This document shows, piece after piece, positions 6,659 through 40,029 of a stretch of 64,000 bases of DNA. Position 1 is the first letter of the stretch; every line of letters starts with the position of its first letter. The stretch covers positions 97,494 to 161,493 of the IMG/VR virus record IMGVR_UViG_3300010354_000045. One strand, 5' to 3'. Origin of the DNA: a virus. The notes below the pieces were generated by a model. That model was not told the origin of the DNA. It worked only from the letters and a program-made list of their open reading frames with translations, and did not search any database. The position numbers and the translations under genes are program-made.

Positions 6659-7645
6659 TTACTCTCCTAAATACTTTGCTTGAAATGGTTCTGCATACTG
6701 CTGAATATTGTCTGCAATTTTTTTCATATCCCATGCGTTGCAAAATTTAAGCATTCTGATTCCAACCTGAGATATATTTTTTTGAACACATCCTGATTTG
6801 ATAGTTTCTTTAATTACTTCTTTAATATGATCTGGTTGATGTGAAAGGTCAATTAGTCTTCGATTTCTTTCATAGTCGTCTAACACACGATGTTCTTTAC
6901 CCTCGTGATCTACCCAGCGTTGAAGCATGAGATTATTCCAATTAAATCCTTTGCTTTTACGATCTTCAAAAGCTTCTGTAAGTCCAACTTTATTTTTAGT
7001 TCCTTTGACACGCACACCAGGATATGCAGAAAACACGTTGTCGCTAGTATCACCCCGCATACATTTTTCAAATAGTAACCATTCTGGGTTTGGAATAGAT
7101 TTAGGTTCCCCTGTTTTTTTATCTTTAACAAGTTTACCTTTAGCATCAAATATACCCTCGTGTGTAATATGATGCTCTTGTACTCCATTATACTGACTTA
7201 CATTAGGAGAGATTAATTGCACAAAATCACTGTCTGTGGATATAATCACATGACGATCATTAGGATGACTTTGAATAAAACCAGCAATTAAATCGTCTGC
7301 TTCTAATGTCGGATTATGAAGGACTGTACAGTTTGTCTTTTCGCTAATAAAAGATTTAAATTCGTCGAACGCTTCCCAAAAGAGTTTATCTTCTTCTTGC
7401 TCTTTAAGAGTTAGTGCTGCACGGCTTTCGGCACGATTTCTTTTATAAGGTTCGTAATAGTCTTTGCGCCAGCTACGACCTTCGAGACAGAAGACAACAT
7501 GTTTCCCCTCAAAATCGTGCCAGGCTTTTTTAATTGAGTTAAAAGTAATATGAAACGCCATTCCTAGTTTAATATCACTAGATCCTTGGATTACATGGCG
7601 TGCTCTAAAAAATGTGTTTGCAGTATCAACTAGTATATAAGTCAT
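6659..7645 (-). CDS. rnh: T4-type RNase H / 5'-3' flap exonuclease
   Basis: ILVD, YKRNR, EADD, STDSDFVQL and GDTSDNV motifs of the FEN/PIN family. Confidence 0.92.
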   Translation of the reverse strand: MTYILVDTANTFFRARHVIQGSSDIKLGMAFHITFNSIKKAWHDFEGKHVVFCLEGRSWRKDYYEPYKRNRAESRAALTLKEQEEDKLFWEAFDEFKSFISEKTNCTVLHNPTLEADDLIAGFIQSHPNDRHVIISTDSDFVQLISPNVSQYNGVQEHHITHEGIFDAKGKLVKDKKTGEPKSIPNPEWLLFEKCMRGDTSDNVFSAYPGVRVKGTKNKVGLTEAFEDRKSKGFNWNNLMLQRWVDHEGKEHRVLDDYERNRRLIDLSHQPDHIKEVIKETIKSGCVQKNISQVGIRMLKFCNAWDMKKIADNIQQYAEPFQAKYLGE

Positions 7646-8091
7646 TCTACTTGGGCCTTGCCCCCAGCAAGTTTTGTTACATTAATAAAACCAGCATTAC
7701 GATTGGTATCTAACCCTTCTTCTGCTAGCATGTTTCTTGCTAGATCACGGAACCAACGATCGACAATTTCTTCTTCTGGATCGCCGTCATAACCATAACC
7801 TGCTTGCTTCAATTGTACAATAAAATGCTCATTCCAGTCAAGTTCAAAAAAGCCATTTCGAACGTTATCTTTATTTACTTTGGTATCAAGTACAGCTACC
7901 CAAGGTTCTCCTCGTTTAGTTGCACGTTCTTTTGGAGTTAACTTAGCAGTTTCTTCTTCTTCTAATGCTTTTTCAGCAGCTTCTTTAGCCTTAGCTACTT
8001 GTGCTTCAGCTTCAGCAATTTTAGATTTGGTAAGTTCTAGAGTTTGTTCCATCTCAGTTATACCAAAAATTTTCTTTAAAAATGTTTTCAT
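7642..8091 (-). CDS. Hypothetical phage protein with coiled-coil N-terminus
   Basis: Likely start MKTFLKK at 8091, giving a TAATG overlap with the queE stop. Confidence 0.75.
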   Translation of the reverse strand: MKTFLKKIFGITEMEQTLELTKSKIAEAEAQVAKAKEAAEKALEEEETAKLTPKERATKRGEPWVAVLDTKVNKDNVRNGFFELDWNEHFIVQLKQAGYGYDGDPEEEIVDRWFRDLARNMLAEEGLDTNRNAGFINVTKLAGGKAQVE

Positions 8092-8942
8092 TAAGTGCCC
8101 CATTCATTTTTAAATAACGGAACTTGCAATCTATCACTATATCTAAGTCCGTATTTCATAGCAAGTTCTGCTACTTTTCTATTATTCATACTGTACACAC
8201 TTTCAACACCGCCAACGGGCATAATATAGATATTGCCTTTAAATCCGTGTCTTCGATAAATGTCTACAACTTCTAAAACTTCGTCAGCATCTTCATTAGA
8301 AGCAATTACAAATTTTAAGTAAGTATGTCCAAGTTTTTCATATTGGCAAACTACATCAGGACGAATTGCATCTTCTCTACTTTCACCACTTACACTTAAT
8401 TTTGCACTAACGCTAAATGTTAGTGAGTTGTGACCTCTTTGTTCAATGCCCCAATTGTAAAGATAATTTCGAAAATCTTTTGATATTTCTTGGGTACCGT
8501 TAGTTTCAAAAGTTATTTCTTTAAGATTCTTCATCTTAGGGTGTTCTAGTAAATCAGGATAGTTTCTTTGCCAACCTAACAATGGCTCACCTCCTGTGAT
8601 AACTAAATGTTCGTCTCGCCATTCTTTGTATGGGAGCATTTCGCAGATACTCTCTGCAATGCTGTCTGTTGTAAGTACTGGTGAAAGGTCTTTGAACCTA
8701 GGATCCCAACTAGCATAAGAATCGCAACCGGTATGAACAAGAGGTAAATCTCTATATTGTTTAAACTCTCCAATACGTTCTGCAATAACGTGTCGTTCAT
8801 TTGATTTTTCTCCTCTAGGCAGACCAAATCCGTCACAGGTAAAATTACATCCAAACACACGTAAGAAAACGGAAGGTACACCCATATACCTTCCTTCACC
8901 TTGTATGCTATAAAATAATTCTGCTACTTTTAGTTTACTCAT
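8091..8942 (-). CDS. queE: 7-carboxy-7-deazaguanine synthase (radical SAM)
   Basis: ELFYSIQGEG, FLRxxGCNFTC...GCDS, ITGGEPLL, ETNGT and RLQ; lies in a folE context. Confidence 0.93.
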   Translation of the reverse strand: MSKLKVAELFYSIQGEGRYMGVPSVFLRVFGCNFTCDGFGLPRGEKSNERHVIAERIGEFKQYRDLPLVHTGCDSYASWDPRFKDLSPVLTTDSIAESICEMLPYKEWRDEHLVITGGEPLLGWQRNYPDLLEHPKMKNLKEITFETNGTQEISKDFRNYLYNWGIEQRGHNSLTFSVSAKLSVSGESREDAIRPDVVCQYEKLGHTYLKFVIASNEDADEVLEVVDIYRRHGFKGNIYIMPVGGVESVYSMNNRKVAELAMKYGLRYSDRLQVPLFKNEWGT

Positions 8943-9201
8943 AAATTTTTGACCATATTTTTAGTTTATCTTGTTTCTTTTGACTAGCTTGCTGTAATTC
9001 TTCCTTGGTAAAAACACCATGATCTATTAACAGGTTAATCATTAGCATAACATCACCCGCTTCTTGCGTAAGATGCTGTCTTTGAGAGCCACCATCTTTG
9101 TAGCTATTATCTAGACCAAAACGGCGCACTTTACTAGCAGATACTATTAGCTCTCCGCATTCTTCTTGTAAGATATCAAGTATTTCCTGAATCTTTGACA
9201 T
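8935..9201 (-). CDS. MazG-like nucleotide pyrophosphohydrolase
   Basis: All-alpha NTP-PPase pattern EECGE...QEAGDV. Confidence 0.75.
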   Translation of the reverse strand: MSKIQEILDILQEECGELIVSASKVRRFGLDNSYKDGGSQRQHLTQEAGDVMLMINLLIDHGVFTKEELQQASQKKQDKLKIWSKIYE

Positions 9202-9529
9202 TTTGTTTCCTAAGTTCTTCTACGTCTTTGACAGCTGATTGTAACACAGTTGCATAGTTAAGAGCAACCTGTTTATTCATAATAATACAAGTTTCAAAAT
9301 CAGTATATCCTTTGGTTAGCAGCTTCCAAATGTGTAACCAACGATTCTTTGACCAGAAATTAGTCCTAGTTGTAGTATAAACGGTTACAGTAACACCTAT
9401 GTCTTCTGCTTCAATATCAATAGTATGTGTGCAGTCATCACTACCGCATTCGCATACGGCCTTGTACATCTTTGATGTACCCCAATCTTTAACTAGTAAA
9501 ACTCCGTTTGCTGGTTTTTGTGGTTTCAT
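9176..9529 (-). CDS. Hypothetical protein with CxC...C-x-H putative metal site
   Basis: [10 protein letters not shown]; ATGA overlap with guaC. Confidence 0.7.
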
Positions 9530-10545
9530 TTTAAAAATACATCGTTAATTTGTCTATTGACTCTAACAAATGTTGTACATTTTGGTAATTGTTTGAGTGT
9601 AGGTGCTCCGACATATGTACAGGTACTGCGTAGGCCACCAAGAATATCTAAAACAGTATTTTTCACAGTACCTCTATATGGAATTTCTACAGTGCGACCT
9701 TCTGATGAACGATATTCCGCAACACCGCCGTGGTGTTTATTCATAGCAGTGTCAGAACTCATACCATAAAATGTAACTTTGCCATCTTTGACTTCGCCGC
9801 CGCCTTCATCGTGTCCAGCTAACATGCCGCCTAACATTACAAAGTCTGCGCCAGCACCAAATGCCTTAGCTACATCTCCAGGACAAGTACAACCGCCGTC
9901 AGCAATGATGTGTCCGCCAAGACCATGAGCGGCATCGGCACATTCGATAATTGCGGATAGTTGCGGATAGCCAACACCTGTCTGTACACGAGTAGTGCAA
10001 ACAGCACCAGGCCCAATACCAACTTTAACAATATCTGCTCCACGTAAGATTAACTCCTGTGTCATGTCTGCGGTAACGACGTTACCAGCAATAATAGTGC
10101 AATGAGGAAATGTTTCTCTAACCTTTTGAACAAAATCAGCGAATCGTTCTTGGTAACCATTAGCTACATCAATACAGATAAAACGTATTTCTGGATACAC
10201 ATTAATAAGTTGGCGTAATTTTAAAAATTCACTATCACTGGTGCCGGTGCTAACTGCAAAATAGTTTCCGCCAATATCTTGAATAGTTGTTTGAAAATAT
10301 TCTATACCAATGTTTTTTACTAAACAAGTAAACATACGATGCTGATATAAGGCATGAGCCATTTGTAGTGTGCCTACACCATCCATATTACTAGCCATAA
10401 TAGGAACCCCATGCCATTCAAATCTGCTGTATTTGAATGTATAATGCCTTACAAGATCTACTTCTTTACGACTACCTAATGTACTGCGCTTAGGACGAAT
10501 AAGTACATCCTTATAATCTAATTTAATTTCGTCTTCAATTCTCAT
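9526..10545 (-). CDS. guaC: GMP reductase
   Basis: N-terminus [23 protein letters not shown] is typical of proteobacterial GuaC; also [23 protein letters not shown] and SEGR. Start placed at 10545 by the ATGA overlap. Confidence 0.95.
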
Positions 10546-11129
10546 TGTTCCCACCATGCTTCATAGGGAAATTCTACCCACACATCATTCTCTGCCTTGT
10601 TGACTTCCATGCCAACAAAGTCCATACCTACTCGACATTTACTAGCTAAGTTATCAACGAGAACTGCAAATTTTACATTATTATTCCAAACATGTTCCCA
10701 TTCAGGATCATTTGGTAAACAACTACTAGGCCAGTCATTCATAATCCAGTTGAAGGTAGCACCTGTGTCATTAATGTCATCAACGACGAGAATGTTTTTA
10801 AAATTTTCGCCTTGTTCTAACAGACTCGATGCGGCATCTAATACTGAACCAATATCGTTTTCATCTTCAATATGAATTTCTTGTTTAGGATAGCCTAGCG
10901 CATCTTCAGCCATACTGCAATCACTGACACACTCACCGCCGTCACGCAGACTAACTTGTAAAGGCTTCATAGGAATATTTAGATAATGACTAATCATAAC
11001 AGCTGGAATAAGGCCGCCACGACTAATACCTACAATATAATCTGGCCGCCAGCCGCTATTAGCAATATCTCTACAAATTTTAGAAACTAATTTTTTTAGT
11101 TCTCTATCTTTAAGAATTAATTTATTCAT
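10542..11129 (-). CDS. Purine phosphoribosyltransferase (Gpt-like type I PRTase)
   Basis: [13 protein letters not shown]-binding [13 protein letters not shown] and C-terminal WVEFPYE. Confidence 0.9.
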
Positions 11130-11869
11130 CTCGGAGCAAACTCTTGTTGTAGTTTAATGTTATCGAAAAACTCTTTTTTAGTACCGGCATCTTCTTTAAA
11201 CGCACCTCTTAACACAGTTGTTTGTGTTAGGCTCGAATGTGCCATGATACCACGATTTTCACAGCAGCCATGTACTGCCTGAATGTAAACCCCTAGGTCT
11301 TTAGTTCCTGTGGCTTTTTGGATCTGCCTAGCAATTTCATTAGCAAGCTCCTCCTGGAGAGTGCCTCGCCTGGCACACCACTGGGCAATCCTTGTATACT
11401 TTGAAAGCCCAATAAGATGTTGGGCAGCAATAATACCAATATAAGCAACGCCAACCACAGGTTGGTGATGATGGCTACACATACTACGAAGCTCACTACG
11501 AACAACAAGCATGCCTTCGTAACGGTCCTCCGAATCATTAGGAAACGATGTTGAGTCTGGTGCTGGGTCATATCTTCCTGCCATTACTTCATTAAAATAC
11601 ATCTTAGCCAGCCTTCGAGCTGTGCCTTTTGAATTAGGATCTGTTTCTCTATCAATTAACAGCCGATCAAGTACTAGTTCAAATGCTTCTGCGGCTTCGT
11701 CGATTAATTGGTCTTTAAATTCTTCAGTAACATACTCACTGATATTATCTCCAGCCCAGAATCTTTTTCCATCTCTCTTCATTTTAAAGCGAAGATAATC
11801 TCCAAGATATGCTTCTTTGTAGCCACCGTCGCCGGCCATGGCATCAAGTGCTGTTTCTTTCTGTGTCAT
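11126..11869 (-). CDS. folE: GTP cyclohydrolase I
   Basis: TARRLAKMY, SMCSHH, GLSKYTR, LQEE and HGCCENRG. Confidence 0.95.
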   Translation of the reverse strand: MTQKETALDAMAGDGGYKEAYLGDYLRFKMKRDGKRFWAGDNISEYVTEEFKDQLIDEAAEAFELVLDRLLIDRETDPNSKGTARRLAKMYFNEVMAGRYDPAPDSTSFPNDSEDRYEGMLVVRSELRSMCSHHHQPVVGVAYIGIIAAQHLIGLSKYTRIAQWCARRGTLQEELANEIARQIQKATGTKDLGVYIQAVHGCCENRGIMAHSSLTQTTVLRGAFKEDAGTKKEFFDNIKLQQEFAPR

Positions 11870-11888
11870 TTTTTCTCCTATTATGTAT

Positions 11889-11918
11889 AGTATATAGGTT
11901 TATTTAGGTCGTTGTCAA
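11889..11918 (-). promoter_or_regulatory. Sigma70-type promoter with an internal TAAATA late-promoter motif, driving the folE operon
   Basis: TTGACA-18nt-TATACT; TAAATA at 11901-11906. Confidence 0.65.
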
Positions 11919-12107
11919 ATTTTTATACCTTTTTCGGCATTCTTCTTTTACTTCTTTTGGAATATCTGGATGCCATTCGGCCATTCCGCAGTCATATACT
12001 CTACTTTTTTCACGTGGAGAAAAGTAAATTAATGTAGGAATAATTACAAATAATAAAAATAACATTAACAACAATGTTAAAGAGATTCGCTTAATAATAT
12101 TCGACAT
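11904..12107 (-). CDS. Small membrane-anchored protein
   Basis: N-terminal hydrophobic helix and a Cys pair; start uncertain. Confidence 0.6.
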   Translation of the reverse strand: MSNIIKRISLTLLLMLFLLFVIIPTLIYFSPREKSRVYDCGMAEWHPDIPKEVKEECRKRYKNLTTT

Positions 12108-12310
12108 AGATTAGCATCTTTAGTTGTTTTAAATGTGAAAGACATATGATACATACCTGGTTTGTAATAAAACCTGTGTCCAGGTAATCCAAATACTTCG
12201 AGTACTTTTGCACACTGTTCGTTCCACCAAGGAACATTTTCATTATACCAAAATATCTCAACTATCTGATTTTTATCGGTTATTTCTTCCCACCATCTGT
12301 CGTTGTTCAT
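12077..12310 (-). CDS. Hypothetical phage protein
   Basis: ORF in a packed operon. Confidence 0.6.
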   Translation of the reverse strand: MNNDRWWEEITDKNQIVEIFWYNENVPWWNEQCAKVLEVFGLPGHRFYYKPGMYHMSFTFKTTKDANLCRILLSESL

Positions 12311-12464
12311 TTTCTAAAAACTTTATTTCATCTTTTATGTAATCTCTATAATCAGAAAGTACTTCTAATTTCCTTCCTGATTCACCAGTTGATCTTAGTG
12401 TTTCTAGATCTTTTTCAATAATACTAAGTTTTTCTTTAAGTTCTTTAACAGTTAAATCACTCAT
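12273..12464 (-). CDS. Small coiled-coil protein
   Basis: ATGA overlap with the upstream gene. Confidence 0.6.
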   Translation of the reverse strand: MSDLTVKELKEKLSIIEKDLETLRSTGESGRKLEVLSDYRDYIKDEIKFLENEQRQMVGRNNR

Positions 12465-12667
12465 AAAGACACAAGCCCTTGTGCTAATGTTTTTACTTCT
12501 TCATCGGTCATAAAAAATTGATAAGTTGACGAAGAATCTACTCCACCATCTTTATTTTTACACTCTTGTATAAATTCAATAGCATTAAGATTATTAGGAT
12601 AAGAACATTTCCAACTTTTAATTCTTAGTCTAAAACCTAAATCTTCTTTGACAATAAATTCTTTCAT
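12461..12667 (-). CDS. Hypothetical phage protein
   Basis: GGAG RBS and ATGA overlaps. Confidence 0.65.
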   Translation of the reverse strand: MKEFIVKEDLGFRLRIKSWKCSYPNNLNAIEFIQECKNKDGGVDSSSTYQFFMTDEEVKTLAQGLVSL

Positions 12668-13035
12668 TTTTCTTCTCCTTTAATTGATTGCCACATTCTG
12701 TATTTAGAAAGAGTTTCGATATAATCTTCGTATTTTTTCTTTAAAAGAGGATAACTATTTTCTAATGCAACATCTCTTTCGGGGATCATCAAGACTTTTT
12801 CGATTGTTCGTAATCGTTCTTCTAAATCTCTACCATTGTGTATAATCTTACCTTTTACATCTAAACTAGCCGGATCATTGTTAACAATTAAAGTTGGACT
12901 TATTTGATATCCAGTAGTATTCGTGATAGTATACGTCCCATTAGATCCTGCCATGGTACCTAGTGTGCCTCCGCCTAACACAGTATTTTGTGTAGTCCAG
13001 TTAAGTGGTGCTGATACTTTGCTGTTTACGGTCAT
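12664..13035 (-). CDS. Hypothetical protein with T/G-rich N-terminus and helical C-terminus
   Basis: ORF track; C-terminus resembles that of 13467-13847. Confidence 0.65.
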   Translation of the reverse strand: MTVNSKVSAPLNWTTQNTVLGGGTLGTMAGSNGTYTITNTTGYQISPTLIVNNDPASLDVKGKIIHNGRDLEERLRTIEKVLMIPERDVALENSYPLLKKKYEDYIETLSKYRMWQSIKGEEK

Positions 13036-13492
13036 TTAAGTATTTCTCATTATGTACCCAGGTATTTTTTACAAGAAATCCCCATTCACGACGTTGCGGT
13101 CCTGGCATGAACAACGTCCAGCAGTCTACGCCTGCTTCAAGCTCAATACGGTGATAGCTATTAGCACTGCAAATACGGAAATGCCCAGGCCCACGCCAAT
13201 GCCGTGTTTCACTGATCTTGGCACCTTGCGAATTAAAGTTAGGAGTCCATTCATAATAACCACCTTTTAAGATAATTGTAGCGTAAGGCCAAGGATGATC
13301 ATGTACGTCGTCCGGATCGCTACGTAAAAATTTATGTAAAAAAATATTAAAAGGAAAATGCTGTCTATCTTTTAAAAAAACATAGTAACGTTCGAGATAT
13401 GGTTTTTCGCTTACGCGATCCATAATAATTCTTTTTCGATCGTGTTTTTCTAACCACGAAAGAAATTTACTTTTTATCTTTTGGATTATCAT
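13001..13492 (-). CDS. Cupin-fold metalloprotein
   Basis: HDHPW...GGYYE...YHRIEL...WTLF cupin pattern; probable start MIIQK at 13492. Confidence 0.75.
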   Translation of the reverse strand: MIIQKIKSKFLSWLEKHDRKRIIMDRVSEKPYLERYYVFLKDRQHFPFNIFLHKFLRSDPDDVHDHPWPYATIILKGGYYEWTPNFNSQGAKISETRHWRGPGHFRICSANSYHRIELEAGVDCWTLFMPGPQRREWGFLVKNTWVHNEKYLNDRKQQSISTT

Positions 13493-13847
13493 ATTCGTCC
13501 TTAACAAGATAGTAAGTTGTTTTAAACTTTTCAAAGGCTATTGCTAGTCCTGGAAATTCTTTACACATAGCTTCTATTCTACTAAAACTAGGCAAGCAGT
13601 CTACAAACTCTTTTCCATTACTCCATTCATTAATACTATATGTGCCGGGCACAGTGCCACTGCTAATAGTATAAGTTCCAGAAGATCCTGTAGCTCCAAT
13701 ATAACCACTACCATTACTTCCTGTAATAGATATATTGCTTATTGAAGCAGTATCTAAACTGCTATCCATAGTCCATGAACTAGGATCAATTGTTATTGTA
13801 TCATTTAATGTTATTGAGTAAAGGTCCTGCTGAGAAGAATTGCCCAT
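13467..13847 (-). CDS. Hypothetical protein with S/T/G-rich N-terminus
   Basis: ORF track; fills the gap between the glycosyltransferase and the cupin. Confidence 0.6.
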   Translation of the reverse strand: MGNSSQQDLYSITLNDTITIDPSSWTMDSSLDTASISNISITGSNGSGYIGATGSSGTYTISSGTVPGTYSINEWSNGKEFVDCLPSFSRIEAMCKEFPGLAIAFEKFKTTYYLVKDEYDNPKDKK

Positions 13848-14892
13848 CTAAAGCCTCCGCTTGTTTTTTAATGAGAGGCAATCTTGTTTCGTAATAGTCC
13901 ATATGACTCATGATTGCTCTACATAGATCTGGCCTATATACATTATAGGCATCCCAGCTTTCAGTCCATTTGCTAGGATATTTAAAATTGTCAAAATACA
14001 TTTCTGTGTAACTGAGTCTGTCTGGAACCATTGGAACAGCATCAACTACTGCACCCTCGTAACAACTAATTCCTAAAGTTTCTTGTAGATTAGCACTGAA
14101 TACCAGTTTTGCTTCACCTAGTAGGGTGTGATATTCGTGTTTAGTTAGTTTACGATCTTGACAAACTACAAACTCATATTGTGGTAAGTGTGTAGATAAG
14201 TCTCGAAAAATTTCAACTTGTTTTTCTGGTGCAATACGATGCGGAAAAAGAATTAAGTTTCTTTTTGGAATACCTTTATACTGAGAAAGTGTACTAGGCA
14301 TATACTCCATAGGCCAGCCTGTACGAATAACCTTGCCGCTATCTAGAAGATCTTTAACATCTTCTTCATACCAGGGATTTTCACTAGGATAGCCATCCTC
14401 CAATAAGTTCTTTATAAAAAGGTCAATATGAAAATTAGTAGCAAAGTAATTATGATCAATAGCATGAAAGAAACTCTTTTCAGCATTTCTAACCCATTTA
14501 GCTTTGCCAATTAATCGACCAAGAAAATCTTGAGGATCGTAACTACCAGCATGCCACAGTGCGTGAATCTTAACAGGAATGTCAAGAAGCTCACTCATGT
14601 ATTTTAAGTTTATGATACCAGGATGCCAAGCATCAGTAAACAAAAAATGATCCCCAGGCTTAACTGCTCCGGATGTAAATAAGCGACTAAATTCTTCAAC
14701 TTGACGAGACTTGTATATATTAGTCCCACCAAAATTGAGAAAGGCACCAGGAGTAGTGGCACTAGGAATATCCTCAGGACCACTGATGACATGAACTTCA
14801 TGTCCTTGTTTTTTAAGAAGTTCGGGTACATGATGTTTCCATTGTCCGGTGTACCTTGTATCAACTGCTTCTAGATCAACAAGATAGATCAT
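13801..14892 (-). CDS. GT-B fold glycosyltransferase, putative DNA base-modifying
   Basis: LFPHRIAPEKQ and ANLQETLGISCYEG resemble the GT-B ExFG...E sugar-binding motif; located in the deazapurine locus. Confidence 0.8.
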   Translation of the reverse strand: MIYLVDLEAVDTRYTGQWKHHVPELLKKQGHEVHVISGPEDIPSATTPGAFLNFGGTNIYKSRQVEEFSRLFTSGAVKPGDHFLFTDAWHPGIINLKYMSELLDIPVKIHALWHAGSYDPQDFLGRLIGKAKWVRNAEKSFFHAIDHNYFATNFHIDLFIKNLLEDGYPSENPWYEEDVKDLLDSGKVIRTGWPMEYMPSTLSQYKGIPKRNLILFPHRIAPEKQVEIFRDLSTHLPQYEFVVCQDRKLTKHEYHTLLGEAKLVFSANLQETLGISCYEGAVVDAVPMVPDRLSYTEMYFDNFKYPSKWTESWDAYNVYRPDLCRAIMSHMDYYETRLPLIKKQAEALDGQFFSAGPLLNNIK

Positions 14893-15113
14893 TAATTTTT
14901 AGCCTTGTATCCGTTTTTGTAATTAAATTTTCTTGATCTGTTACTATAGAGATACTTATTCCAAATATCACTCTGCTTGTTGTACAAATGAGCCTCGTTG
15001 AATTCCAAAAGCTCCATGCGACAAAAATCCCTAAATGCATCAAGGTCGTCAAAAATTTTGACTACTTCGGGGCGAGTTTGGAAATAACTTACTTCTTTGT
15101 AATTAATAGCCAT
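14892..15113 (-). CDS. Hypothetical phage protein
   Basis: AAGGA RBS; TAATG overlap with the glycosyltransferase. Confidence 0.7.
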   Translation of the reverse strand: MAINYKEVSYFQTRPEVVKIFDDLDAFRDFCRMELLEFNEAHLYNKQSDIWNKYLYSNRSRKFNYKNGYKAKN

Positions 15114-15124
15114 ATTAAGTTTCC

Positions 15125-15517
15125 TTAAAATTTAATAAAACAACCATTTTCTCCGTCTTCGGAGACCTCAATCCAAACCTCTCGGCCTGGATACCTTGCG
15201 TTGATCTGTGCATATAAATCTTCACTGATCATTTCGCAACTTTTATAATCAAGTGTCAGTGTACTATCTTTATAAAGATTTTCCAACCAACGCTTGAACT
15301 GAATAAACTCAATATCTCGATCGTTGTGTGTTACAGAGATCCAAACACGAAAGTGAAAGATATGACGATGGGGATAACCAAGAAAGCTAACATCATATTC
15401 ATCGCCTGTGGCTAGATTAGGATCAGTTAATGCTGCTGGATATTTGTGAATACCTTCTTTTTGAAAGGTTACCCAGATCATTCTATTTGGTCTTACATCA
15501 GTTTTAATTGTTGTCAT
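15125..15517 (-). CDS. QueD-like T-fold protein with LxxxHRHxF; probable DpdL-type CDG decarboxylase
   Basis: GIHKY...FLGYPHRHIF...SCEMI...EVSEDGEN; lacks the QueD CxxxHGH motif. Confidence 0.75.
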   Translation of the reverse strand: MTTIKTDVRPNRMIWVTFQKEGIHKYPAALTDPNLATGDEYDVSFLGYPHRHIFHFRVWISVTHNDRDIEFIQFKRWLENLYKDSTLTLDYKSCEMISEDLYAQINARYPGREVWIEVSEDGENGCFIKF

Positions 15518-16038
15518 TTGATAATCTCGTCGTTTTTATATTCGCTCCAAGTAGTATACTTGGATCTATCTTGAAGTTTATGTAGGCTATGACACCATAC
15601 ACCAGGATTTGTTGCTTTAAAATCTTTGTCGTCGATTTTAACCATTGTGTTATAATTCCATAGTTTAATATAAGGAATTGGAACACGAATTTGAGGAATA
15701 AAATTTTCATAACTGCAAAGATTGCCGTCATGAAATTCTTCAATGAAATTTAATGAAATATCTAGAGAACACAGATATTCTTTTTCTAAAAAATACTCAA
15801 TCATAGTTTCCCAACGTTGCCAATCTAATGCATCCTTAGGAGTAAAACTATGATTAGCACCAAAAAAGATATGATCAATTTTAGTGTTTGTTGATGTTAA
15901 AATAGCTTCAACATCTTGTACAGGATGCACATCTACAACAAATAAAGTATTAAGACCAAATGCCGGTGTCTTTTCAACTTCCTTACCAAAGAAAAATTTA
16001 ACATTTTCTCTAACACCGTCGTTATAATTACGCTTCAT
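15514..16038 (-). CDS. Hypothetical protein coupled to the QueD-like gene
   Basis: 174-aa alpha/beta ORF with an ATGA overlap at 15514-15517. Confidence 0.75.
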   Translation of the reverse strand: MKRNYNDGVRENVKFFFGKEVEKTPAFGLNTLFVVDVHPVQDVEAILTSTNTKIDHIFFGANHSFTPKDALDWQRWETMIEYFLEKEYLCSLDISLNFIEEFHDGNLCSYENFIPQIRVPIPYIKLWNYNTMVKIDDKDFKATNPGVWCHSLHKLQDRSKYTTWSEYKNDEIIK

Positions 16039-16288
16039 TTTTCTCTGCCTTAGATTGTTCGTATTGCTTGATTAAGCGAGTAACAGCTTCCATTTGAGTT
16101 TGAAATACATCTGGCGCATCTGCAGAAGCACGTTCCATATCCCAGTCACTAGGATAGTGACGTAGCATACTTCGAGCGTGTTCTCTGATAAGTTTAGGAA
16201 CTCGTGGAGTGTGTTGAGGATTACACAAGTCTATTAAAAATTTACGAGTCTGTATAACAGCTCGATAACGTTCGTCAGGTAGCGTCAT
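16028..16288 (-). CDS. BPSL0761-like small protein
   Basis: MTLPDERYRAV...FL..L...TPRVP..IR..A...LRHYP pattern. Confidence 0.65.
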   Translation of the reverse strand: MTLPDERYRAVIQTRKFLIDLCNPQHTPRVPKLIREHARSMLRHYPSDWDMERASADAPDVFQTQMEAVTRLIKQYEQSKAEKNEA

Positions 16289-17828
16289 GACCCAATTCCA
16301 ATTCATCTAGTTTATCAATTTCGTCTTGAGTAAATTCATCACTGTGCTCAGATTGTACAGGTTCTGGGTCTACTTCGTCAAACAAATTGGCAAACATTGT
16401 AGATGCATTAACTGTTTTCTTTCCAGTGGCACCTCTAGTGCCAATAATACTCATCCAGAAACGGCTATATTCTTCAACGACTGCATCTGCTACAGCACGA
16501 TCGCTAGTTGAAAATATAGCTTCAACAATATCTTTAAAAAAGAGTCGGTCAAATTTTTCTTGTACTAGCATAGCAGGAATTCTACCGTTATCGTACTGTC
16601 GATTAGCTTCTTGTACAGCATTAATATGGCTCCAAACGTTATGACCCATTTGTATAGCGTAACTAAAACTATCCCAACTGGTACGACCTTCCTTGCCAAT
16701 TTTGTTTAGGTCACCTGGCTTATAGATACAAATATCTTTAATTTCAACTTGATCAATTATTGGGCTTGATTCAAAGTTTTTAAAGATTCTGTCTTGGATG
16801 ACCGCATCTTTGAAGAGTCTTGAGTCTGTTGCATACTTTTTGTCATCAGCAGACGGCACCATTCGGTAGACCCATTTTGTTCTGTCTGCTGTTTCTGTTT
16901 GGATGTAGATCTGTCCGTTTGCTGTTGCCAGAAACGGTGAGGCGCAGTCAAAAGATATGGTAAAGTTTTCATTATGATATTTCCTTACAGCACGTTGTAC
17001 ATCAGTTAATAAAGTTGCCCACTCTAACTTTGATGTTCCTAGAAAGTGCATCCAATCTTGTTTGCCTTTTTCTAACAGACCATCAAATCTTAAAGACACA
17101 AGACGTTTTAAAGTCAAGTGTATATCACACATATTTTGCCCACCCATAGCCCATCCGTTAAAATGCCTATTGGGATATTTTTTAGGATCACAGTAGTGTT
17201 TCATACGTTGATACCAATCTTCAGCATCTGTATGATTTTCACCTTGTAAAACATTTAAAAATTTACAATTACCGTTTCGATTGTTAATAAACCAATCGTT
17301 GTTAATGTATGTACCTTGTACTGCTTCTGCGTATGTGGTAATACCAGTAGCTTTTTGACCAGCAGGACTACGAGCAACCCATGCTGGAATGTCTAAACAC
17401 ATACCATAGTCCATAAGTGCATCCATCCACTTAAGAACTTGTTCACGTTTCTTCTGTGCTTTAGGGCAACTAGGATTTTTCCAGTCACCTTCCCACACAC
17501 CTTTGCCAATTTGGAATCCACCACTATCACCTAATACCCAACTGGTAGAACGATTGCGATTTCGAAACATATCTTCGCCTTCGTCTGATTTATTGAGATC
17601 TAGGTTAGCATGACCTGCACTATATAAACACCAATTGTAATAAAATAGTCCTTTATCTGGTTCTAGATAGTTAAGACTTTCTACACCGTTTGTAAAACTT
17701 TTAGGAATACGTGCAGGATCTACATAATTTCCATATCGTTGCTTGCCTATAAACGTGGCATAAAAACCAGACGTAGCAGGCAGGAATACCGCATAGTCAT
17801 TCTGTGTTGATGTTAGATCACGATTCAA
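16275..17828 (-). CDS. TGT-family base-exchange transglycosylase (DpdA-like, putative DNA 7-deazaguanine insertase)
   Basis: GDSGGFQ, CLDIP, NVLQG, GWAMGG, MHFLG, SFDCASP and HN motifs in TGT order; folE/queE context. Confidence 0.85.
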   Translation of the reverse strand: MNRDLTSTQNDYAVFLPATSGFYATFIGKQRYGNYVDPARIPKSFTNGVESLNYLEPDKGLFYYNWCLYSAGHANLDLNKSDEGEDMFRNRNRSTSWVLGDSGGFQIGKGVWEGDWKNPSCPKAQKKREQVLKWMDALMDYGMCLDIPAWVARSPAGQKATGITTYAEAVQGTYINNDWFINNRNGNCKFLNVLQGENHTDAEDWYQRMKHYCDPKKYPNRHFNGWAMGGQNMCDIHLTLKRLVSLRFDGLLEKGKQDWMHFLGTSKLEWATLLTDVQRAVRKYHNENFTISFDCASPFLATANGQIYIQTETADRTKWVYRMVPSADDKKYATDSRLFKDAVIQDRIFKNFESSPIIDQVEIKDICIYKPGDLNKIGKEGRTSWDSFSYAIQMGHNVWSHINAVQEANRQYDNGRIPAMLVQEKFDRLFFKDIVEAIFSTSDRAVADAVVEEYSRFWMSIIGTRGATGKKTVNASTMFANLFDEVDPEPVQSEHSDEFTQDEIDKLDELELGHDAT

Positions 17829-18024
17829 TTCGACCCCACTTTACCTTTAACCAAATTCTTTCATGTATATAGTAATCAATACTTAAAAGAATATGTAATG
17901 CTGTAGCAAAGCCGGTGGCATTACCAATATCACCTGTGAACATGTATGTCCACACAATAGTAAACAGCCAGGCAGTAATGCGATAGCTGATCATCCTTGC
18001 AATAGTTCGACGTTTAGTTTCCAT
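17818..18024 (-). CDS. Small membrane protein, DUF2061-like
   Basis: ETKRRTIARMISYR...YYIHERIWLKVKWG. Confidence 0.7.
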   Translation of the reverse strand: METKRRTIARMISYRITAWLFTIVWTYMFTGDIGNATGFATALHILLSIDYYIHERIWLKVKWGRIES

Positions 18025-18775: not shown

Positions 18776-18807
18776 ATTATATTTAGATCGTTGATAAAAG
18801 TCAACGA
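18776..18807 (-). promoter_or_regulatory. Sigma70-type promoter overlapping TAAATA and a 7-bp inverted repeat
   Basis: TTGACT-17nt-TATAAT; TAAATA at 18780-18785; TCGTTGA/TCAACGA at 18788-18807. Confidence 0.8.
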
Positions 18808-19565
18808 ATTTTTTCATTATATTCAACCGATTCGTTCAATATTGTTATTGGTTTATTTAGACCGCAACTATATTTTATAAACGCTTTAGTATCCTTGGGA
18901 AAACAATGACCTCCCCATCCTCGCCGACCGTCGGGCCCGGGAACCATTGTGTGATCCATGCCAATTCGATTATCATGGCCTAATACTTGTCTTACAACAT
19001 CGAATTCAGCACCACTAGCTTGGCACACATCATATATTTGATTAAAGAAACTGGTTTTAATTGCTAAGAAACTATTGGCAGTATATTTTATAATACTAGC
19101 CTCTAGACTACTACAATTAAAAAAGATTGTGCAGTGCGGCAAAGTCTTTGTGAATAAGTCCTGCCAAAAACAGTCAGGATCTTCTCCTCCTAATATCATA
19201 AATTTTTGATTTTGAAAATCTTGATTTGCAGTATTTGCTCTTAAAAACTCCGGACTAAAAGTTAAGCTGTGATCTTGATATTTTTCTTCAAGTAATTTAA
19301 CAACATCTGGACTTACTGTACTTTTAATTAGAACAGGTATATGCAATGGACACTGATCTAATACTGCTATAATTTGACTAGCATCACATCGTCCGTCAAT
19401 AGTACTAGGAGTACCAACACAAATTATTAATCCTTCTGCATCCGGATGATTTGAAATTTTATTATTGTTTATAACAGGATCTATAATTTCAATAGAGTAG
19501 TTATTTTTTAAGTTATTTGTTACGGCTTTACCAACAAAACCGTAACCCGCTATAAGTATCTTCAT
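18801..19565 (-). CDS. Short UDP-glucose/nucleotide-sugar 6-dehydrogenase lacking the C-terminal domain
   Basis: GYGFVG, CVGTP, KSTV, SPEFLR, KYTANSF and GWGGHCFPKD. Confidence 0.88.
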   Translation of the reverse strand: MKILIAGYGFVGKAVTNNLKNNYSIEIIDPVINNNKISNHPDAEGLIICVGTPSTIDGRCDASQIIAVLDQCPLHIPVLIKSTVSPDVVKLLEEKYQDHSLTFSPEFLRANTANQDFQNQKFMILGGEDPDCFWQDLFTKTLPHCTIFFNCSSLEASIIKYTANSFLAIKTSFFNQIYDVCQASGAEFDVVRQVLGHDNRIGMDHTMVPGPDGRRGWGGHCFPKDTKAFIKYSCGLNKPITILNESVEYNEKIR

Positions 19566-19566
19566 A

Positions 19567-22233
19567 TTAAAATTCAAACAGGCTGTTAAATGTGTTCTTT
19601 TCTTCAGTGGATCTAATATCCCAATTTAGAACACCGATTAGATTTTCTAACTTGTTATCAATGATAGTGGCTTCCATCTCGTCATGATCAAAAGGCAAAT
19701 CCTTAAACCATTGCGGCAACCTAAGTTCGTCAACAGGATACGCAACACTAGTAAATTCTAATGGATTAGGTTTAAGTTTACAAACAATAACTTTAGCACC
19801 ATCAGTAATGTTCATACTATACTTGTCACTGAACATACGCTTTAATGTGTTCCAGTTAATACTAGCGCGAACATGCCCAGGCATATTGGCTTTACCTTGT
19901 TTCTTTTCTTTGGCCTCATACTCAGTGATATTGTTAGCACGTTTAGGACTACCCTTCTCCCAACCTGGTCTTGCCTTAAATTTAATTCTAAATTCGGCAA
20001 TATGATCTAACACTTCTTGTTCTGTACTACCAGTTAACACTTTTTCAAGAACTTCACTTAAAAAATCTTGGATAAATTCTGGAGTGTCACTGCGTTTGAG
20101 ATCTAATCCCATAGCTTTAATTTTTCCGGGCTTACCTTCAATGTCAAGACGTTTGCCTTCTTTGTCGTAATAAAGAACTGCATAACGCTTTTTAGTAATA
20201 AACAAGCTCTTACTACCAACAATTTCTCGACCTGCTTTAATTACTTCTCCGCGTGTCTTTGGAACATGGAAAGCATCTAACATAAATTGAGGAAACGTTT
20301 GGTTAACTTCTCCGCCAATTTGATCGTACAGTTGAATAATAGTATCTTTAGTCCAGGGAATATGCCCAGCATCAATTTCATTTTTTAAAGTCTTGAAAGC
20401 ACTAAAGTAACAGGAATCTGTATCGCCGTAGATGATGGCCTTGCCAACATGGTTATATTCTCCTGTAATGATTTCATTGACCTTTCCAGCCATGTGCTTT
20501 GCAATCTGACGCCCAGTAAGAGTTGTAGATTGGCCGATACGCTTATCAAAAAAGCGACACCCAGGATTAAGGATGGCACCATAGAGCGAATTAAGGTTAA
20601 TCTTTTTAACCAACTGTCTTTTGTCCCAATACTCCTCTTCAATTTTGTTACCAGCATTTATAGCCTCCTTTAGTTTAGCCTGCATTTCCTTACGTTCAGC
20701 ATACCAGCGCTTTAACAGTCCTGGAATTATGCCTTCTTTTTCGTAAGTAAATATAGTGCCATTCGCCGAAAGCATCCAAGGCTGATTACTTTCATAGATT
20801 AGCCTATAGACCTCAGCAGCACTTAATACATCACTATCCCCATTTTCCCAGTCAATAGTAATGTCAGTGCCAATTTCACAGTTCATAACTGCGGTATATT
20901 CTAAACTGCCAAATAACCCTTCCCAAGCTGCCGCAAAACTTTTTCCTTTATTAATTTGATCTTGAATATGTGCATCTGTTAATGTTTGACGAAGTTGTCC
21001 TATAATTGTTTCAGGACCCATGTTTAGTGCTCTAATAGCACTAGGATAAAGACTGTTAATGTCTAATGAACCTACCCAGTCGTGTATACCTTCTTTAGGA
21101 TAAGCAACATAAGCTCCGGCAGCATTAGTGTTTTCTCTATCATCCATTTTAGGACGATTCGGAACTTGGAATCCTCTACGATGAGATTCGTTAATAATGG
21201 CCTGTTCAGTAACAGCAACCGCGCCCATAGTAGTTTGAATCAGCACAGTATTTTCATGCGCTAGAGTATTAGCTAGATCCAGAAACTTGAGTTTTTTATC
21301 GAGTTTGTCCAATAGAGCACAGTCTTGTCTGTTGTATTCAATAAATGTTTTGAAGTCGTTGTTGTATAACTGGTCCAGCGTTCCTTCATATTGGGTTTTT
21401 CTTTCCCCAAGTTCGTATTCCGCGATGGCATCCAATCGATAGCTGTGCCTTTCTTCATATGTATACTTTCTGTAAAGTTCAAGGTAGTCAACATGAACAC
21501 GACCAATAAAGTCATAGGTAGTTGCTGTACGACCAAATTTTTCGTATTCTCTCTTTTTCGGCAGTAAATTAAACAAACAAAATTTTCTTGTATCTTCTTT
21601 ACTCAAAACTTTTGTAACACGATTTACAGTATATGGAATATCAAAGCCTTCACTATTCCATCCGCTTAACACATCTGCATCTTGTATTAGATCTAAGAAA
21701 GTATCTAACAAATCTGCTTCTTTATTAAACAGCATAGTATTAGGGAATTCTTTAATCGCCTCTTTAGCCTGCTCCATAGTCATAGTCTTCGGAGGAATAG
21801 CTAAACAGACCATAGTATCTAACCATTGCAAGTGAACGGCAATGGCAGTAATAGGCATAAATGCGTCATCTGGTGATGCATAGCCTCTCTCTGGATCAAA
21901 ATCTACCTCAATATCAAAAAATGCTGCATTTAATTTTGGTGCATCTGCATTCAGATAATTTTCACTTAAACATACAAAAATAGGATTGATATCTGCTTCG
22001 TACATTTCTCGACCACTATTAATGGCCATTTCTTTACGAAGTTCTTTGGTATTTTTACAAACGATTCTAGTCAAGGAATCGCCGTAGATAGATTGGTGTT
22101 TGCCCTTGGGGTCTTTAACGTAAAAGGTGTGCCTTACAGGAATATCTTTGTATTCTCTCTCACCTTTCTTATTTCTTTCGACGATGCGGATAAGATCATT
22201 ATCCCTGTCGAAATAAGCGTCGACATAACTCAT
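19567..22233 (-). CDS. Family B DNA polymerase (gp43-like)
   Basis: Exonuclease motifs FDIE, GWNSEGFD and YNRQD; polymerase motifs DINSLYPS, KINLNSLYG, YGDTDS and KKRY. Confidence 0.98.
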   Translation of the reverse strand: MSYVDAYFDRDNDLIRIVERNKKGEREYKDIPVRHTFYVKDPKGKHQSIYGDSLTRIVCKNTKELRKEMAINSGREMYEADINPIFVCLSENYLNADAPKLNAAFFDIEVDFDPERGYASPDDAFMPITAIAVHLQWLDTMVCLAIPPKTMTMEQAKEAIKEFPNTMLFNKEADLLDTFLDLIQDADVLSGWNSEGFDIPYTVNRVTKVLSKEDTRKFCLFNLLPKKREYEKFGRTATTYDFIGRVHVDYLELYRKYTYEERHSYRLDAIAEYELGERKTQYEGTLDQLYNNDFKTFIEYNRQDCALLDKLDKKLKFLDLANTLAHENTVLIQTTMGAVAVTEQAIINESHRRGFQVPNRPKMDDRENTNAAGAYVAYPKEGIHDWVGSLDINSLYPSAIRALNMGPETIIGQLRQTLTDAHIQDQINKGKSFAAAWEGLFGSLEYTAVMNCEIGTDITIDWENGDSDVLSAAEVYRLIYESNQPWMLSANGTIFTYEKEGIIPGLLKRWYAERKEMQAKLKEAINAGNKIEEEYWDKRQLVKKINLNSLYGAILNPGCRFFDKRIGQSTTLTGRQIAKHMAGKVNEIITGEYNHVGKAIIYGDTDSCYFSAFKTLKNEIDAGHIPWTKDTIIQLYDQIGGEVNQTFPQFMLDAFHVPKTRGEVIKAGREIVGSKSLFITKKRYAVLYYDKEGKRLDIEGKPGKIKAMGLDLKRSDTPEFIQDFLSEVLEKVLTGSTEQEVLDHIAEFRIKFKARPGWEKGSPKRANNITEYEAKEKKQGKANMPGHVRASINWNTLKRMFSDKYSMNITDGAKVIVCKLKPNPLEFTSVAYPVDELRLPQWFKDLPFDHDEMEATIIDNKLENLIGVLNWDIRSTEEKNTFNSLFEF

Positions 22234-39530: not shown

Positions 39531-40029
39531 GATTTACCTCAATTCCACTTTTTTCTAGGAATTTGATTCCTGCATCATCTCTATAGTTTTGACCAAAATA
39601 AACACGACGAATACCTGACTGACAAATGAGCTTGGCACAGTCAAGACAAGGGCTGTGAGTAACAAATAAGTCCGCGCCGAGTCCACTGTTGTTAGACTTT
39701 GCCAGTTTTGCAATAGCGTTTGATTCAGCATGAAGAACTTCAGGTTTTGTTTTTAGGCCGTATCGAACATCACGGCCCGCTTCTTCGTGCCAACCTTCGT
39801 AGGGATATTGTTCGTCAAACTCTTCAGGACTCAACCATCCGCCTGCACCCTTGTCCCAAACTTGATCTTCGCAGTTGTTGTCCCAACCAGCAGGCATACC
39901 GTTATAGCCGTAGCTGATGACACTGTCGTCTTTAACAATAACAGCACCTACCTGTAGTCTACGTGCATGACTAAGTTCGGCACATCGCTTTGCCCAATCC
40001 ATATATAATTGTAGAAATTTATTTTTCAT
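39514..40029 (-). CDS. dCMP deaminase
   Basis: VGAVIV, GYNG, HAESNAI and SPCLDC. Confidence 0.93.
   Translation of the reverse strand: MKNKFLQLYMDWAKRCAELSHARRLQVGAVIVKDDSVISYGYNGMPAGWDNNCEDQVWDKGAGGWLSPEEFDEQYPYEGWHEEAGRDVRYGLKTKPEVLHAESNAIAKLAKSNNSGLGADLFVTHSPCLDCAKLICQSGIRRVYFGQNYRDDAGIKFLEKSGIEVNQIKGE

Follow-up and report, generated by a model that had tools for sequence, protein, structure and literature searches.

In a 64,000-nucleotide stretch of viral DNA (hereafter the window), which is the final 64 kb of a 161,493 b IMG/VR viral contig (record IMGVR_UViG_3300010354_000045; positions 97,494 to 161,493), a cluster of genes for 7-deazapurine synthesis was found next to genes for a transglycosylase, a purine phosphoribosyltransferase (PRTase) and a GMP reductase (GuaC). 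This locus is probably a 7-deazaguanine DNA-modification module of the type carried by Pseudomonas jumbo phage PA5oct (Wroclawvirus), a type that lacks QueC and uses DpdL, with a guanine-recycling side branch in which the PRTase is followed by GuaC. A first-pass annotation of the window had proposed for the same genes a route to 7-deaza-adenine nucleotides resembling the tubercidin pathway of Streptomyces, and the two readings are weighed below.

The contig was estimated by CheckV to be ~43% complete, implying a genome of ~370 kb, and the A+T content is 63% (37% G+C). When the DpdA-like transglycosylase was used to search a collection of 50,697 phage records, matches were found only in PA5oct-like Pseudomonas jumbo phages (34% identity), Vibrio phage 2.275.O and Sinorhizobium phage Phosso, and a megablast search of this collection with the 10-kb region gave zero matches. 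The same transglycosylase query matched at least 596 viral metagenome contigs. Hence, as judged by sequence comparison, the window appears to come from an uncultured PA5oct-like jumbo phage, a distant relative of PA5oct in a family that is very abundant in metagenomes. The relatives used for comparison were a complete genome of 364,554 b (G001; DpdA 74% identical), a 278-kb contig (G002) and metagenomic loci given L numbers. From the contigs matched by the DpdA-like query, the 80 closest DpdA relatives were examined, and 29 of these loci span folE to queE; the 80 best guaC loci were likewise examined, from at least 599 viral contigs that matched a guaC query at 68–86% identity.

All genes in the deazapurine region lie on the minus strand. 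Reading along that strand, the order is a DNA polymerase gene, a dehydrogenase-family open reading frame (ORF), a 247-aa (amino acid) ORF, the DpdA-like gene, two small conserved genes of no assigned family, the DpdL gene and a glycosyltransferase gene, followed by several small ORFs, folE, the PRTase gene, guaC, a 117-aa ORF with a CxC motif, a MazG-like gene, queE and a 5'-3' exonuclease gene. Synteny with PA5oct runs from the polymerase through RNaseH and includes the DpdA-like gene, the DpdL and glycosyltransferase genes, the PRTase gene and queE. The window proteins share 34% (DpdA-like, with EST35_0316), 42% (glycosyltransferase), 61% (DpdL), 29% (PRTase) and 30% (QueE) identity with their PA5oct counterparts. 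PA5oct differs in that no folE match was found within its 25-kb locus and guaC was not found anywhere in its genome. A system for deazaguanine synthesis and incorporation has been listed in PA5oct by Iyer et al. (PMC7824862), and the pattern of enzyme resistance of PA5oct DNA fits a modified G (PMC12191111), this pattern being the one piece of wet-lab evidence available for the family.

The DpdA-like protein (517 aa; coordinates 16275..17828, minus strand) has no match in Pfam, PHROG or NCBIfam, and the Pfam TGT model (PF01702) does not recognise the DpdA annotated in phage immuto either. However, its LGDSGGFQ and FDC motifs are conserved without change across 19 relatives, and the top 50 PDB matches of an AlphaFold2 (AF2) model with a mean confidence score (pLDDT) of 83 were exclusively TGT, with a probability of 1.0. 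Matches to this model in BFVD included the TGT of phage Motura, a protein of Vibrio nt-1 and a protein of Cellulophaga phage phiST. The modelled fold and the motifs indicate that this gene encodes a putative DpdA-like guanine transglycosylase with a TGT fold, as had been supposed in the first-pass annotation, and that the protein belongs to a divergent long subfamily. The presence of a TGT-fold transglycosylase points to base exchange at G.

The first-pass annotation had also placed a DpdL-like protein in this region. DpdL, a QueD-like paralogue with the signature LxxxHRHxF, has been named in phiST and in Acidovorax phage ACP17 (Cui et al. 2023, PMC10516641). That signature occurs only once in the window, as LGYPHRHIFHF in a 130-aa ORF (15125..15517, minus strand; phrog_17812, 2e-34), so that a DpdL gene is indeed present but is this ORF and not its neighbour, to which the name had first been given. 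As homology to the named proteins is direct (tblastn, 55.5% identity and 5e-36 with ACP17; 34.5% and 2e-9 with CGPG_00067 of phiST), the ORF was assigned to DpdL, the proposed 7-carboxy-7-deazaguanine (CDG) decarboxylase. The DpdL family, when compared by hhalign with five QueD sequences from phages, gave no significant match (probability 1.9%).

The glycosyltransferase (363 aa; 13801..14892, minus strand) is a core gene of the module, with a mean column identity of 71% across 19 relatives. Its AF2 model (pLDDT 82) has a GT-B, GT4-like fold; GT4 enzymes, glycogen synthase and BshA among them, were the top Foldseek matches (probability 1.0). When the families of the DpdA-like protein, the GT-B enzyme and DpdL were each represented by a hidden Markov model (HMM) profile and compared with PDB sequences, no meaningful match was found. 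A GT-B homologue adjoins DpdL in PA5oct (EST35_0317/0318) and in locus L002 (14525–16075), and Synechococcus phage BUCT-ZZ01, which is unrelated, has the two genes side by side as well (hmmsearch 2e-39 and 7e-88). This gene beside DpdL, together with the dehydrogenase-like ORF, hints at a deazaguanine with an attached sugar; glycosylation may occur on the product of DpdL or on the base in DNA, and the pairing may prove the more interesting lead.

The remaining synthesis genes form a single coupled run made up of folE, the PRTase gene, guaC, the CxC ORF, the MazG-like gene and queE. The ATGA overlaps that the first-pass annotation had recorded for folE, the PRTase gene and guaC (11126–11129, 10542–10545 and 9526–9529) are all exact, and the continuation of the run to queE was borne out by family matches. 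GTP cyclohydrolase I (FolE) is encoded at 11126..11869 (minus strand; PF01227, 3.9e-38; phrog_2197, 1.1e-43), and a radical SAM (S-adenosylmethionine) protein resembling the CDG synthase QueE is encoded at 8091..8942 (minus strand; phrog_2076, 9.4e-54), with a SIQGEG motif near its N-terminus and partial matches to five NCBIfam QueE models, all five below the cut-off. The cysteine spacing of its radical SAM site is odd, with GCNFTC followed after ~36 residues by GCDS. The MazG-like nucleoside triphosphate pyrophosphohydrolase (88 aa; 8935..9201, minus strand) has an EECGEL motif and matches phrog_4856 (4.2e-21), its match to PF03819 (7.9e-4) being below the cut-off. The 117-aa ORF (9176..9529, minus strand) has no family match in Pfam, NCBIfam or PHROG; many relatives also have it in the interval from folE to queE, and the two cysteines of its CxC (C26 and C28) are the sole invariant part of the motif in 14 relatives.

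The first-pass annotation had reported neither queC nor queF in the window, and no match to the QueC, QueF or QueD families was found across the whole 161-kb contig. QueC was also not found in the complete genome G001 or in PA5oct. QueD/PTPS is encoded in these two genomes 45–55 kb away from the cluster (C1:217584-217997 in G001), and, as the contig is incomplete, a QueD gene of the window phage may lie outside it. Two QueD/PTPS copies are present in PA5oct (169215–169715 and 171534–171944).

A similar gene set is found in phiST, where FolE and QueE occur without QueC, a DpdL with the LxxxHRHxF signature is present and a MazG/dUTPase-like gene lies in the cluster (PMC10516641); in phiST DNA every G is replaced by 2'-deoxy-7-deazaguanine (dDG) (PMC10516641). 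It is most likely that the pathway in the window phage ends at CDG or, via DpdL, at 7-deazaguanine, as in phiST. The two systems differ in that phiST has a short DpdA3 of 259 aa, which shows no similarity to the 517-aa protein by BLAST or HMM. A search of a 10-kb region of phiST gave no match to the PRTase family, and no Cellulophaga phage was among the matches listed by tblastn for GuaC. A small HMM of the MazG-like family misses the pyrophosphohydrolases of both phiST and immuto, so the parallel between these genes is one of function class only.

From the known roles of these families, a route can be proposed that builds on the gene identities, folds, synteny and distribution observed here. 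GTP would be converted to CDG by FolE and QueE together with a QueD whose gene, as in the relatives, would lie away from the cluster, and the DpdL homologue would form 7-deazaguanine from CDG. The long DpdA-like enzyme would then exchange 7-deazaguanine for guanine in the phage DNA after replication, and the conserved GT-B glycosyltransferase could further decorate the product. Each exchange would release one guanine, amounting by our own arithmetic to ~10^5 guanines per genome copy (370 kb, 37% G+C) if replacement is extensive, and free guanine would compete for the enzyme–DNA intermediate. The Gpt-like PRTase would combine the expelled guanine with phosphoribosyl pyrophosphate (PRPP) to form GMP, both removing the competitor and feeding the GTP pool used by FolE. 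In the sub-lineages that have it, GuaC would convert surplus GMP to inosine monophosphate (IMP), which could pass on to adenine nucleotides, in keeping with a 63% A+T genome, or return to GMP. The PRTase and GuaC would then both act on ordinary purines, in a side branch.

The PRTase gene (10542..11129, minus strand) encodes a Gpt/XGPRT-like purine PRTase with an intact PRPP loop (PF00156, 1.2e-10; 41.3 bits against a cut-off of 26.3). The nearest solved structures are 6-oxopurine PRTases, namely the Pyrococcus horikoshii purine PRTase (1VDM), Sulfolobus GpT-1/2 and Escherichia coli XGPRT. Its best NCBIfam match, to xanthine PRTase (1.2e-9), is far under the cut-off, and the score against NF006613 is 37.9 bits where 138 are needed. 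An acidic insertion of ~45 aa (residues ~62–108) precedes the PRPP loop, and is absent from the 131–153-aa homologues of immuto, BUCT-ZZ01 and PA5oct and from the Gpt structures.

The first-pass annotation, in which phage DNA-modification systems that use DpdA were said not to need a PRTase, treated this gene as foreign to them. This did not hold, as tblastn homologues of the PRTase were found in 17 phage records and all 17 have the gene beside FolE or QueE. These records are 11 PA5oct-like phages, in which the gene adjoins QueE, four Flavobacterium immuto phages, Synechococcus phage BUCT-ZZ01 and Brevundimonas phage MaInes. In immuto, whose DNA has guanine fully replaced by the analogue fdPreQ1 (PMC10516641), the genes run QueD, QueE, PRTase, FolE, NTP pyrophosphohydrolase, DpdA, formyltransferase and QueF. 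In BUCT-ZZ01 the order is QueE, PRTase, a hypothetical protein, QueD and FolE, and in MaInes FolE is followed directly by the PRTase. A large protein search with the window PRTase returned only close metagenomic relatives (67–89% identity), and the gene is present in 22 of the 29 close relatives spanning folE to queE, mostly upstream of folE. A purine PRTase therefore appears from gene content to be a regular accessory of phage FolE/QueE/DpdA clusters, and guaC to be the only unusual member of the cluster in the window.

The guaC gene (9526..10545, minus strand) encodes a 343-aa GMP reductase of the E. coli type, with scores of 547.8 bits for NF003470 (cut-off 397) and 532.7 for TIGR01305 (cut-off 492), and its product is 62% identical to Salmonella GuaC. 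Its place in the coupled run was upheld; the longer start first assigned to it (the ORF start at 10557) was replaced by the ATG at 10545 (MRIEDE...), because the ATGA overlap with the PRTase gene lies at 10542–10545, and alignments of homologues begin at this ATG as well. Cys186, Thr188 and Glu289, the catalytic residues according to studies of the E. coli and human enzymes, are conserved in the window copy and in 85 other phage copies (86 in total). The G+C content at third codon positions (GC3) is 0.25, similar to that of the other genes of the phage. The predicted product is thus a canonical GMP reductase with its catalytic residues intact.

Of the 29 loci spanning folE to queE, taken from the 80 closest DpdA relatives, only one contains guaC; two further loci have it next to the PRTase gene. 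A GMP reductase was found in one of 17 larger contigs of DpdA relatives, and guaC was not found anywhere in the complete genome G001. When the 80 best guaC loci were examined instead, half (40) were found to have guaC in the cluster, at varying positions that include after the PRTase gene, after folE, between the DpdL gene and folE, before queE and beside the MazG-like gene. Seven loci (the window, L006, L007, L011, L108, L164 and L165) have guaC directly behind the PRTase gene, in two different arrangements. The other 40 have no cluster gene within 6 kb, and neighbours of guaC outside the cluster include genes for a cell-wall hydrolase, an Rv2179c-like 3'-5' exoribonuclease and a full-length Hsp70/DnaK (L086–L088, ~18 similar loci and G002). 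The possibility that loci without cluster genes belong to unrelated phages was rejected, since in G002, where guaC is near 40 kb, the genes for FolE and the DpdA-like protein are ~220 kb away at 259–266 kb, which shows that at least the largest such group is of the same family.

In a quick maximum-likelihood tree of GuaC, the 84 environmental copies form one clade in which copies from inside and outside the cluster are interleaved, at 70–86% identity. Parsimony gives 14 changes of context, of which at least three are forced by well-supported branches, and the basal branches are in-cluster. Xanthomonas phage XacN1 and Caulobacter phage Cr30, in which GuaC was found and FolE was not, carry the same family as one of the auxiliary genes of large phages (44–49% identity), but their proteins lie on long branches outside the environmental clade. 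Taken together, these distributions indicate that guaC is an optional, mobile accessory that is often, though not necessarily, kept with the module. Independence of guaC from the dpd genes had been named in the first-pass annotation as a finding that would speak against a tubercidin-type route, and much of it was seen in G001, PA5oct, G002, XacN1 and Cr30.

In the tubercidin-type route, the PRTase would ribosylate CDG or 7-deazaguanine, GuaC would reductively deaminate the resulting 7-deaza-GMP analogue and host PurA and PurB would complete 7-deaza-AMP, to be used in DNA as 7-deaza-dA or as an ATP analogue. The parallel with the Streptomyces tub and toy clusters is real at the level of enzyme class, as both have GTP cyclohydrolase I, a radical SAM CDG synthase, a PRTase (TubE being specific for CDG), a GMP reductase (TubD) and a nucleotide hydrolase or pyrophosphatase (PMC6112128). 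The translational coupling of folE, the PRTase gene and guaC, the recurrence of guaC right behind the PRTase gene in the window and six L loci, the in-cluster position of half of the closest guaC loci, and a known pathway that stops at CDG because QueC was not found would all suit this route, which is chemically possible since TubD itself reduces GMP. However, searches of the contig, G001, G002 and PA5oct for the UbiD, PurA and PurB families (PF01977, PF00709 and PF00206) gave no match, a difference from tub with its UbiD decarboxylase and from toy with its PurA/PurB paralogues. The window GuaC is of the E. coli type with 343 aa, whereas TubD and ToyE have 385 aa, and it shows no divergence and nothing to suggest a changed substrate. 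A pathway-dedicated GMP reductase conserved along with the other genes was also not seen, as relatives that share the cluster either lack guaC or have it far away. The genes that are conserved encode the transglycosylase, DpdL, GT-B, FolE and QueE, and not guaC, which counts against this route, and the PRTase has no diagnostic value, since phages with a 7-deazaguanine in their DNA have it too. The window further differs from tub and toy in carrying a TGT-fold DNA transglycosylase gene, 5 kb upstream, and a 2026 genome-mining study takes the presence of DpdA/TGT to indicate modification of nucleic acids and not a nucleoside-metabolite cluster (10.64898/2026.04.15.718813). Such an enzyme requires a free base and replaces G, and the restriction-enzyme resistance of PA5oct is of the G type. 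A tubercidin-type route is therefore considered very unlikely, and there is equally little reason to expect that guaC-bearing sub-lineages make 7-deaza-dA for their DNA, or a tubercidin-like ATP analogue, on top of 7-deazaguanine by way of the PRTase, the co-transcribed GuaC and host PurA/PurB.

Two other explanations, each unlikely but less so, concern the side-branch enzymes separately. The PRTase might act on the deazaguanine base, like TubE/ToyH, to give a 7-deazaguanine nucleotide that is used as such, for example by incorporation before replication with the MazG-like enzyme trimming dGTP, and GuaC would then be an ordinary purine enzyme. A PRTase and MazG-type enzymes do recur in deazaguanine clusters, including that of immuto with its complete replacement of G, the MazG/dUTPase-like gene of phiST adjoins DpdL, and a 7-amido-7-deazaguanine (ADG) nucleoside in CP220-infected cells is cited by Cui et al. 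(PMC10516641). Yet every such phage encodes a transglycosylase, the published reading is insertion after replication (PMC10516641), and the solved enzymes closest to the PRTase act on guanine or xanthine. It is similarly improbable that guaC is functionally unlinked to the module, as a generic auxiliary gene of nucleotide metabolism whose placement reflects shared expression timing or recombination history. XacN1 and Cr30 have GuaC without FolE, and the guaC region of Cr30 also holds a dCMP deaminase gene; the 40 of the 80 closest guaC loci without a cluster gene within 6 kb and the repeated switches of context on the GuaC tree are also as expected for an unlinked gene. However, recurrent residence in a ~10-kb cluster of a ~370-kb genome, at several positions and on basal branches, exceeds chance expectation.

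The preferred reading, 7-deazaguanine modification of the DNA with recycling of the guanine that is released, takes over from the first-pass annotation a simpler alternative in which the PRTase and GuaC salvage guanine and shift the pool towards adenine for an A+T-rich genome. The recycling part is favoured. The shift is matched on the pyrimidine side by an encoded dCMP deaminase, but G+C is ~0.38–0.39 in relatives both with and without guaC, so the A+T rationale has no comparative support. Several further points weigh against the preferred reading as a whole. The in-cluster position of guaC in 40 of the 80 loci and on the basal branches points to a real functional tie, which would suit a deazapurine substrate as much as guanine salvage. 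Specificity of the PRTase for guanine is assumed, as the protein has the ~45-aa insertion and its scores fall well short of the Gpt/Hpt equivalog cut-offs in NCBIfam. The decarboxylase activity of DpdL is so far a proposal (PMC10516641), and the substrates of all of the enzymes, and the flux through them, are what we infer from their families.

The 7-deazaguanine systems by which phages protect their DNA from restriction enzymes have been well studied, and the published descriptions consulted give the base-synthesis genes and DpdA only. One point added here is that such clusters regularly have a purine PRTase as an accessory, to which a GMP reductase and a MazG-like protein are often added in one very abundant family of environmental jumbo phages. 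The three together offer a testable picture of how a phage might handle the large amounts of guanine removed from its own DNA. A second point is that DpdL is paired in this family with a strongly conserved glycosyltransferase and a nucleotide-sugar dehydrogenase-like gene; the final DNA base may be new. The 7-deaza-adenine idea can still be tested, but having become unlikely it need no longer prompt a costly chase.

The module is bounded upstream by a family B DNA polymerase gene (19567..22233, minus strand; PF00136, 3.6e-36; PF03104, 5e-19) with 51% identity to the PA5oct polymerase region, and downstream by a 5'-3' exonuclease/RNase H-like gene (6659..7645, minus strand; PF02739, 1.3e-19) with 52% identity to EST35_0325 (RNaseH) of PA5oct. 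A short ORF of the UDP-glucose/GDP-mannose dehydrogenase family (258 aa; 18801..19577, minus strand; PF00984, 9.8e-21; PF03721, 9.8e-11) sits between the polymerase and DpdA-like genes, and a similar ORF precedes folE in L006, L011 and L075. The 247-aa ORF that follows it has a virion protein as its PA5oct counterpart. A predicted DUF2061 membrane protein (17818–18024, minus strand; PF09834, 1.5e-6) is encoded immediately upstream of the DpdA-like gene, and a conserved 174-aa protein (15514..16038, minus strand) with no Pfam, PHROG or NCBIfam match was found in most relatives. The dCMP deaminase-family gene lies further off in the window (39592–40014, minus strand; PF00383, 1e-23), and G001 and PA5oct each have one too.

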